Below, in pieces: positions 201 through 1,009 of a stretch of DNA of 1,009 bases (position 1 is the first letter of the stretch; each line of letters starts with the position of its first letter). The stretch comes from Escherichia coli (lineage in GTDB: Bacteria > Pseudomonadota > Gammaproteobacteria > Enterobacterales > Enterobacteriaceae), in NCBI RefSeq assembly GCF_003334335.1, contig NZ_QOWQ01000130.1; one strand, 5' to 3'. Position numbers and translations under genes: made by a program. The notes below the pieces were generated by a model that did not search any database, was not told where the DNA came from, and saw only the letters and a list, made by a program, of their open reading frames with translations.

Positions 201-1009
201 GCTGGTGAGCAATCTTATTCTGCTTTAAATGCTCGGAATGAAGCTGGGAGTGTTTATAAAATATATTATAACCCAGATAATAAAACGGCACATATTGATT
301 GGGGTAGCTTAGGTGATGTGGTAAAAGAGCGAAATAAGCCGATTTCACTTCTCAGTAAAATAGATGTCAATGGTAATGTTACAATTACCTCCGCAGACGG
401 TTCAACAACATTTACTGTTTATGATAAAGAAGTTCATGATTTCATGAAGGCTGTGCCATTAAAGGCATTTGGTAACGGAGATTTACTGACAGAACAGAAT
501 ATCCGTGACCTGTACAACCGCGTTTCAGCAATCCAGCAGATGAAAACCAACGTGGGCCTGGATAAGTATGGAAATGTGGCTGCAACACCGGGTGAAATAA
601 AAGAATACATGTCTTTACAGAGCTATCTGGCAGGGGAAGCAGCTAACTCAACTATTGGCCTTGATAAAAACGGTAAGCTGACCGAGGATGAGAAGGACAT
701 TGTAACACCATTACGTATTAACGACGGTGTTGTGACTGTTGCGAATGAGCTTGATGCTCAGAAAGGCAAGCTTGATGCTCAGAAAGGCGAGCTTGATGCT
801 CAGAAAGGCGAGCTTGAAGCGCAGAAGCAAAATCTTGGTAAACTGACCACGCGTACCGACAAGATTGATGCTGCGGCTGCTGCAACAGCTGCAAAAGTCG
901 AATCCCGCACACTGGTTGGTGTGAGTTCTGATGGCACCCTGACCCGTGCAGAAGGTGCAAAGAACACCATTTCTGTTAACGATGGTCTGGTGGCCCTGTC
1001 TGGTCGTAC
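120..1009 (+). CDS. Trimeric autotransporter adhesin (YadA family), N-terminal part; probably an Eib-type immunoglobulin-binding protein. Partial: 3' end lies beyond the window.
   Basis: ATG at 120 is the first start after an in-frame TAA at 99..101, and the frame stays open for 296 codons to the window edge. It is absent from the supplied ORF track, presumably because it has no stop in the window. Translation begins MSKKFTKAVLSAAMAGVLFGVSFDIMAAGEQSYSALNARNEAGSVYKIYYNPDNKTAHIDWGSLGD... and ends ...VANELDAQKGKLDAQKGELDAQKGELEAQKQNLGKLTTRTDKIDAAAAATAAKVESRTLVGVSSDGTLTRAEGAKNTISVNDGLVALSGR. The N-terminus closely parallels the YadA signal peptide (MTKDFKISVSAALISALFSSPYAFA). Heptad repeats indicate a coiled-coil stalk. 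I recall Eib proteins (EibA/C/D/E/F/G) as having a very similar N-terminus, but this is memory, not a search result, so no gene symbol is given. Confidence 0.85.
   Translation, partial: MSKKFTKAVLSAAMAGVLFGVSFDIMAAGEQSYSALNARNEAGSVYKIYYNPDNKTAHIDWGSLGDVVKERNKPISLLSKIDVNGNVTITSADGSTTFTVYDKEVHDFMKAVPLKAFGNGDLLTEQNIRDLYNRVSAIQQMKTNVGLDKYGNVAATPGEIKEYMSLQSYLAGEAANSTIGLDKNGKLTEDEKDIVTPLRINDGVVTVANELDAQKGKLDAQKGELDAQKGELEAQKQNLGKLTTRTDKIDAAAAATAAKVESRTLVGVSSDGTLTRAEGAKNTISVNDGLVALSGR
747..830 (+). repeat. In-frame 21-bp tandem repeat, four units (three near-identical, one diverged), encoding heptads ELDAQKG / KLDAQKG / ELDAQKG / ELEAQKQ
   Basis: Units: 747..767 gagcttgatgctcagaaaggc; 768..788 aagcttgatgctcagaaaggc (one mismatch); 789..809 identical to unit 1; 810..830 gagcttgaagcgcagaagcaa (six mismatches). 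Unit 1 starts at codon 210 of the CDS, so each unit is exactly one heptad. Confidence 0.95.

Follow-up and report, generated by a model that had tools for sequence, protein, structure and literature searches.

The alanine-rich segment DAAAAATAAKV (D250-V260; 867..899, plus strand) very probably makes up the C-terminal end of the left-handed, trimeric N-terminal coiled-coil stalk of an EibA-type autotransporter, where it would act as a fixed-length, in-register spacer. The trimeric packing, the left-handedness and the phase-keeping role of this spacer are inferred, the handedness because of the RxD motif and because of the published AF2 trimer of EibA (PMC12511318). The segment itself is ordinary and already known, being part of the reference EibA protein. 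EibA was described in 2000. In what follows, the window refers to the whole stretch of 1,009 nucleotides that was analysed, and the segment was characterised from its codons, AF2, heptad phase and homologues.

The window carries the 5' part of a gene that, judging by translation and homology, is an allele of eibA and would encode a prophage-borne, immunoglobulin-binding trimeric autotransporter adhesin of type Vc (120..1009, plus strand). On translation, the open reading frame starts with an ATG at position 120 and is still open at the end of the window, after 296 codons. The best match in the phage collection was eibA of prophage P-EibA (AF151091.1), with 93.7% nucleotide identity over the aligned parts, and the product aligns collinearly with EibA (AAF63234.1) at 78% amino acid identity with gaps counted. 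A genome search found matches to the window in 27 complete E. coli genomes, with full-length matches of up to 93% identity, and the matched genes are annotated as YadA C-terminal domain-containing protein. In the best genomic match, the gene lies in a prophage, where genes for tail tip protein J and tail fibres precede it and one for an S6 peptidase follows. Protein homologues reached E-values down to 1e-167 and all came from E. coli (best 120 of about 900 homologues). Full-length homologues (87-95% identity) carry the YadA-like beta-barrel anchor PF03895, ahead of which the window stops at codon 296. A Pfam scan of the 296-residue product gave no significant match, and hence no head repeats or head domain. 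Two antisense open reading frames on the minus strand (718..960 and 800..970, 80 and 56 aa) were rejected as by-products of the GCN-rich repetitive strand, as they have no homology support against the strong homology of the plus strand. Upstream of and into the start of the signal peptide, positions 1..140 match several lambdoid Escherichia phages of the PhiR5 and PhiR12 series at 99.3% identity, and positions 1..16 overlap a stem_loop annotated upstream of eibA in AF151091.1 (L007 1479..1516).

EibA is built from an N-terminal domain without LPBR, a left-handed N-terminal stalk half, a saddle, a left-handed coil and the anchor (PMC12511318). As far as can be read from its sequence, the product of the window shows the traits of the EibA subgroup, namely an N-terminal domain only, a heptad-based and probably left-handed N-terminal stalk half, and an RxD motif before the saddle. 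It begins with a putative Sec signal peptide (aa 1-28, MSKKFTKAVLSAAMAGVLFGVSFDIMAA; 120..203) that is the same as the first 28 residues of EibA and in which a basic n-region, a hydrophobic core and a small-residue end can be recognised; the cleavage site is a presumed one. The N-terminal domain (204..716) is predicted by AF2 to be of mixed alpha/beta structure, with pLDDT mostly 80-94; it has no YadA-like head repeats, and it takes in most of a 27-aa insert that is missing from the reference EibA. This insert (GLDKNGKLTEDEKDIVTPLRINDGVVT; aa 180-206, 657..737) lies between the N-terminal domain and the stalk and occurs in about a third of the close homologues. At aa 201-208, the junction of the insert and the stalk helix, AF2 confidence falls below 50.

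The gene is a mosaic when six E. coli loci (L001-L006) are compared: the part encoding the N-terminal domain (120..~630) is highly variable, while the cassette from stalk to anchor, from about nt 624-636 onwards, is nearly identical in nucleotide sequence across alleles. In L006, the N-terminal domain and the end of the signal peptide are essentially unrelated. The Ala segment was considered as a recombination junction and rejected, as the conserved cassette begins far upstream of it, near nt 624-636.

The stalk opens with a helix predicted at aa 200-261 (717..902) from the AF2 monomer (helix H172-233, equal to aa 200-261), a linked-trimer model and the heptad phase. Its coding stretch contains a 21-nt tandem repeat of 3.8 copies encoding ELDAQKG heptads (747..826), which was found by Tandem Repeats Finder (TRF). 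There follow the RxD motif R245-T246-D247 (852..860), which occupies heptad positions g-a-b, and then the Ala-rich segment. An Eib-family saddle between two stalk segments is present in the product. This beta-minidomain (aa 262-287, SRTLVGVSSDGTLTRAEGAKNTISVN; 903..980) was located by phmmer, Foldseek and the AF2 strands at aa 264-268, 274-276 and 282-286, and after it a second AF2 helix from aa 288 marks the start of a predicted post-saddle left-handed coiled coil (DGLVALSGR..., 981..1009), which is cut by the window end. The post-saddle motif with the critical aspartate lies beyond this end, and its first residues, LSGR, alone are inside the window. The only solved relative of the product is EibD (2xqh). 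With phmmer, 2xqh_A aligned to aa 216-296 at an E-value of 4e-10, with near-identity over KVESRTLVGVSSDGTLTRAEGAKNTISVNDGLVALSGR, which is the saddle minidomain. Foldseek likewise returned 2xqh as its sole significant match (E 6.6e-6); the TM-scores of 0.15-0.19 are low, since a long fibre modelled as a monomer takes on arbitrary bends, and it is the E-value and the identity alone that are informative here.

The codons of residues 250-260 are GAT GCT GCG GCT GCT GCA ACA GCT GCA AAA GTC (the letters of the Ala-rich stretch are AAAAATAA). A preliminary description of this DNA had given the peptide and its codons exactly, but had placed them at 865-897, which is 2 nt early and out of frame. It had also put the segment directly after the heptad repeats; in fact, 13 residues intervene between the end of the repeat at codon 236 and D250, and the RxD motif is among them. 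The clustering of alanine goes beyond what composition would lead one to expect. When the whole 296-aa product was shuffled, seven alanines in eight residues arose in 0.025% of cases and a run of at least five alanines in 0.4%; when the stalk helix was shuffled on its own, the figures were 0.05% and 0.6%.

A simple heptad-phase scan over aa 198-262 gave one best phase, in which position a falls on residue numbers equal to 1 modulo 7 (V204, L211, L218, L225, L232, L239, T246, A253 and V260) and position d on V207, Q214, Q221, Q228, Q235, L242, I249 and T256. Since this one phase runs through the whole stretch, the Ala segment can be read as the final three turns of a normal heptad coil. Its core positions would be A253 (a), T256 (d) and V260 (a), with the remaining alanines at b, c, e, f and g. 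As the phase is unchanged over aa 250-260, the sequence argues against a coiled-coil discontinuity at the segment, be it a stutter, a stammer, a beta-layer or a hinge. Modelling points in the same direction, with the heptad phase and the AF2 helix suggesting a regular coiled-coil stalk periodicity. For AF2, the product of the window was extended by the C-terminus common to six E. coli loci and modelled from an alignment of 35 sequences; the monomer prediction is a single unbroken helix over aa 200-261, with pLDDT of 64-73 over the Ala segment. A linked trimer, in which 40-residue Gly/Ser linkers connect three stalk-saddle fragments and which was used for secondary structure only, has helices at aa 224-262 with pLDDT of 70-94, falling to 70 over aa 253-262. 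Its saddle and post-saddle parts have pLDDT below 50 (mean 47), in contrast to the confident pre-saddle helices. The helical part of a trimeric-adhesin stalk that the preliminary description had seen here is thus borne out, both by the AF2 helix and by the homology to EibA, and the structure prediction it had proposed for the stalk gave an unbroken helix in the monomer and a helix over aa 224-262 in the linked trimer.

The segment would belong to a 23-residue module with the pattern L-x-x-L, RxD, x-I-D-A-A ... V, which appears to recur directly after the saddle. The pre-saddle copy (aa 238-260, NLGKLTTRTDKIDAAAAATAAKV; 831..899) was recognised as a paralogue of the post-saddle GLVALSGRTDRIDAAVGAIDGRV by BLASTP and by nucleotide matching. 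BLASTP aligned the pre-saddle LTTRTDKIDAAAAATAAKV with the post-saddle LSGRTDRIDAAVGAIDGRV at 10/19 identities (E 3e-4). The nucleotide match between the two amounts to 41/81 and is the best of all in-frame windows, about 4 sd above their mean (22.8, sd 4.2). Four residues are alanine here and not alanine in the post-saddle copy, and for three of them the second codon base alone differs: the post-saddle codons GTT, GGT and GAT, for V, G and D, each correspond to GCT. Such second-position changes within a duplicated module indicate that the Ala run came about by point substitution and not by triplet expansion. On this comparison, the Ala segment is a diverged copy of the post-saddle stalk module, and intermediate forms of the module are found in P0121 and P0125-P0128, such as DAAVGATAARV in P0121. 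At the positions corresponding to a/d/a (253/256/260), homologues and the paralogous copy have V/V/L, V/V/V, A/L/V, T/N/I and V/I/V. The RxD motif marks left-handed coiled coils of trimeric autotransporter adhesins (TAAs) and YxD right-handed ones (Alvarez et al. 2010, cited in PMC3297439 and PMC6555100). At the place equivalent to the RxD of the window, proteins of the EibD/EibG type have YTD.

Two further arrangements of saddle and stalk were seen among the relatives. P0121 (216 aa, partial) has two canonical saddles in tandem, and the linker between them (RTDRIDAAVGATAARVDKVESRTT) is intermediate in sequence between the post-saddle motif and the Ala-rich motif of the window. In P0124, P0129, P0130, P0136, P0141, P0143 and P0144, a second, divergent saddle-like unit with the pattern TTVxVxxDGSLTMD......KRVNEALVDLDKSxKDRTT lies directly upstream of the canonical saddle and replaces the coiled coil.

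The comparison of segment length among homologues that had been put forward in the preliminary description gave a constant result: the Ala segment has 11 residues in 116/116 close homologues that reach the saddle (best 120 of about 900), and point changes within it are rare (D to G, A to V, A to T). Over the same 116 proteins, variation in length is confined to the ELDAQKG repeat, which has 2-4 copies and always changes by whole heptads, and to the 27-aa insert, which some of the proteins have and others lack. The copy number in the window is the maximum seen, and few homologues share it. With aa 243-296 as query, 26 saddle-bearing proteins were found among 1.84 billion representative proteins. 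When all fetched proteins with an RxD before the saddle are taken together, the distance from RxD to the first saddle strand is 21 residues, i.e. three heptads, in 123/124, the exception being P0121 with 24 residues. Alanine-richness is not conserved: P0126 has DAAVGAVDNRL and the more distant P0128 DAATAANTNKI, at the same length. The six E. coli loci, including the one with an unrelated N-terminal domain, have the same codons across the Ala segment. Because of this codon identity, the invariance is in part put down to a conserved C-terminal cassette inherited from a recent common ancestor, and not to proven selection. The fixed spacing of three heptads between RxD and saddle, beside a freely varying repeat, shows which parts of the stalk tolerate a change in length.

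Instead of a spacer, the segment could be a point of flexibility or bending, or a register transition, as the preliminary description had suggested, in which small core residues weaken the packing and the stalk bends or changes its supercoil before the saddle. From the sequence, alanine at a and threonine at d are weak core residues that could soften the coil locally; A253 and T256 are smaller than the V and I found at these positions in the post-saddle copy, and pLDDT declines towards the helix end in both the AF2 monomer and the linked trimer. Core cavities were reportedly proposed to help TAAs bend in the paper on the EibD structure by Leo et al. in 2011. This reading nevertheless seems unlikely. 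One heptad phase continues across the segment, the AF2 helix is unbroken, and the length is constant and equals an integral number of heptads, which is the pattern of ordinary continuous coiled coil that the preliminary description had itself named as speaking against its suggestion. The drop in pLDDT coincides with the poorly modelled saddle and not with the Ala run, and P0128 has the same length with fewer alanines. A GCN triplet tract that expands and contracts by slippage, as in a contingency locus, would be another source of an Ala run, and five consecutive GCN codons with short GCTGC repeats speak for it. Tandem Repeats Finder, however, reported a single repeat in the window, the 21-nt one at 747-826, and none in the Ala run. 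The third positions are mixed, and the codon use of the segment (GCT 4, GCA 2, GCG 1) is like that of the whole gene (GCT 16, GCA 13, GCG 4, GCC 1). Moreover, no length variant occurs in the 116 homologues (best 120 of about 900) and the DNA is the same in six loci, whereas variation is seen in the true 21-nt repeat, which lies 40 nt upstream. The run thus lacks the marks of a trinucleotide-repeat or contingency tract, and slippage is effectively refuted, with a probability close to nil. The argument of the preliminary description that mixed codons speak against a recent triplet expansion holds up, and it is strengthened by the missing repeat match and length polymorphism, by the gene-like codon use and by the second-position point changes relative to the paralogue.

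A different role would follow if the segment, as a paralogue of the post-saddle RID(A/Y)AVGAIDGRV that keeps D250-A251, were a second or vestigial immunoglobulin-binding site. The pre- and post-saddle motifs are paralogous, and D250 is the counterpart in the window of an aspartate needed by EibG for binding of IgG Fc, which the exchange D391A abolishes (preprint, bioRxiv 10.64898/2025.12.25.695649). In the EibD stalk, IgA and IgG are bound by two different regions (PMC7247746), which also speaks for this reading. The EibG residues D391-A392 were placed at RI[D][A]AVG of the post-saddle module by matching four published residue letters on P0137, an indirect mapping that does not use EibG's own sequence and that counts against this reading. 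A literature search with the motif strings gave spurious matches only. Further points against it are that five of the nine residues following D-A-A are not the same (A, A, T, A and A here for V, G, I, D and G there), and that the likeness covers only about 16 residues up to the saddle. IgG binding has been mapped to a region that reaches about 35 residues into the coil after the saddle. The pre-saddle module might be a duplicated and partly decayed IgG-Fc motif with D250 kept, representing either a weak or different second ligand site or a trace of how immunoglobulin binding arose from a generic RxD module, but both the binding-site reading and this scenario of decay are improbable. The paralogy with the aspartate-bearing post-saddle motif still provides a testable idea on the origin of the immunoglobulin-binding site. 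As an aside, the same preprint (10.64898/2025.12.25.695649) gives D378-Y388 as the IgG-binding residues of EibE, although the EibG mapping implies adjacent residues, probably D387-Y388 of RIDYAVG, and D378 there looks like a typographical slip.

For the preferred reading as a fixed-length spacer at the end of the stalk, the following picture can be drawn. In the trimer, the final three layers of the core would be formed by A253 (a), T256 (d) and V260 (a), with the other alanines on the flanks and the outside of the helices. The three heptads (21 residues) from RxD to the first saddle strand would let the chains exit the coil in phase and build the saddle. Enrichment in alanine, relative to the post-saddle copy, would result from point substitutions to a small residue of high helix propensity. 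Residue identity at these positions is probably weakly constrained, and alanine may simply be tolerated as an outer filler.

Compared with known proteins, the product of the window shares with EibD (2XQH) the order helix-saddle-helix, a nearly identical saddle and the start of the post-saddle coil (domain order of EibD: PMC7247746). EibD differs by a YadA-like head and neck and by a right-handed pre-saddle coil with YxD (KKYTDQKTSEVNEKVEARTT), while the window has a heptad-based pre-saddle coil with RxD and the Ala-rich stretch. The post-saddle RxD stalk module (LSGRTDRIDAAVGAIDGRV) has the same L-x-x-RxD-x-ID-AA...V pattern, heptad positions and length as the pre-saddle module, and small residues at outer positions are found in both. 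In the window module, which lies before the saddle, A and T stand at core positions where the post-saddle copy has V and I, and A takes the place of its outer G, D and G. Among the closest known systems is also EibA of prophage P-EibA from E. coli ECOR-9 (AF151091.1, AAF63234.1), which has the same signal peptide, type of N-terminal domain, ELDAQKG heptads and RxD. The prophage context in E. coli genomes is the same as well, the gene being preceded by tail-fibre genes and followed by an S6 peptidase/EaaA-like gene. The window differs from EibA by the 27-aa insert (aa 180-206) between N-terminal domain and stalk, by one more heptad repeat, by scattered substitutions in the N-terminal domain and by QNLGKL where EibA has KNLGEL. 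The Ala segment is unaffected by any of these differences, and both DAAAAATAAKV and the saddle are identical in the two proteins.
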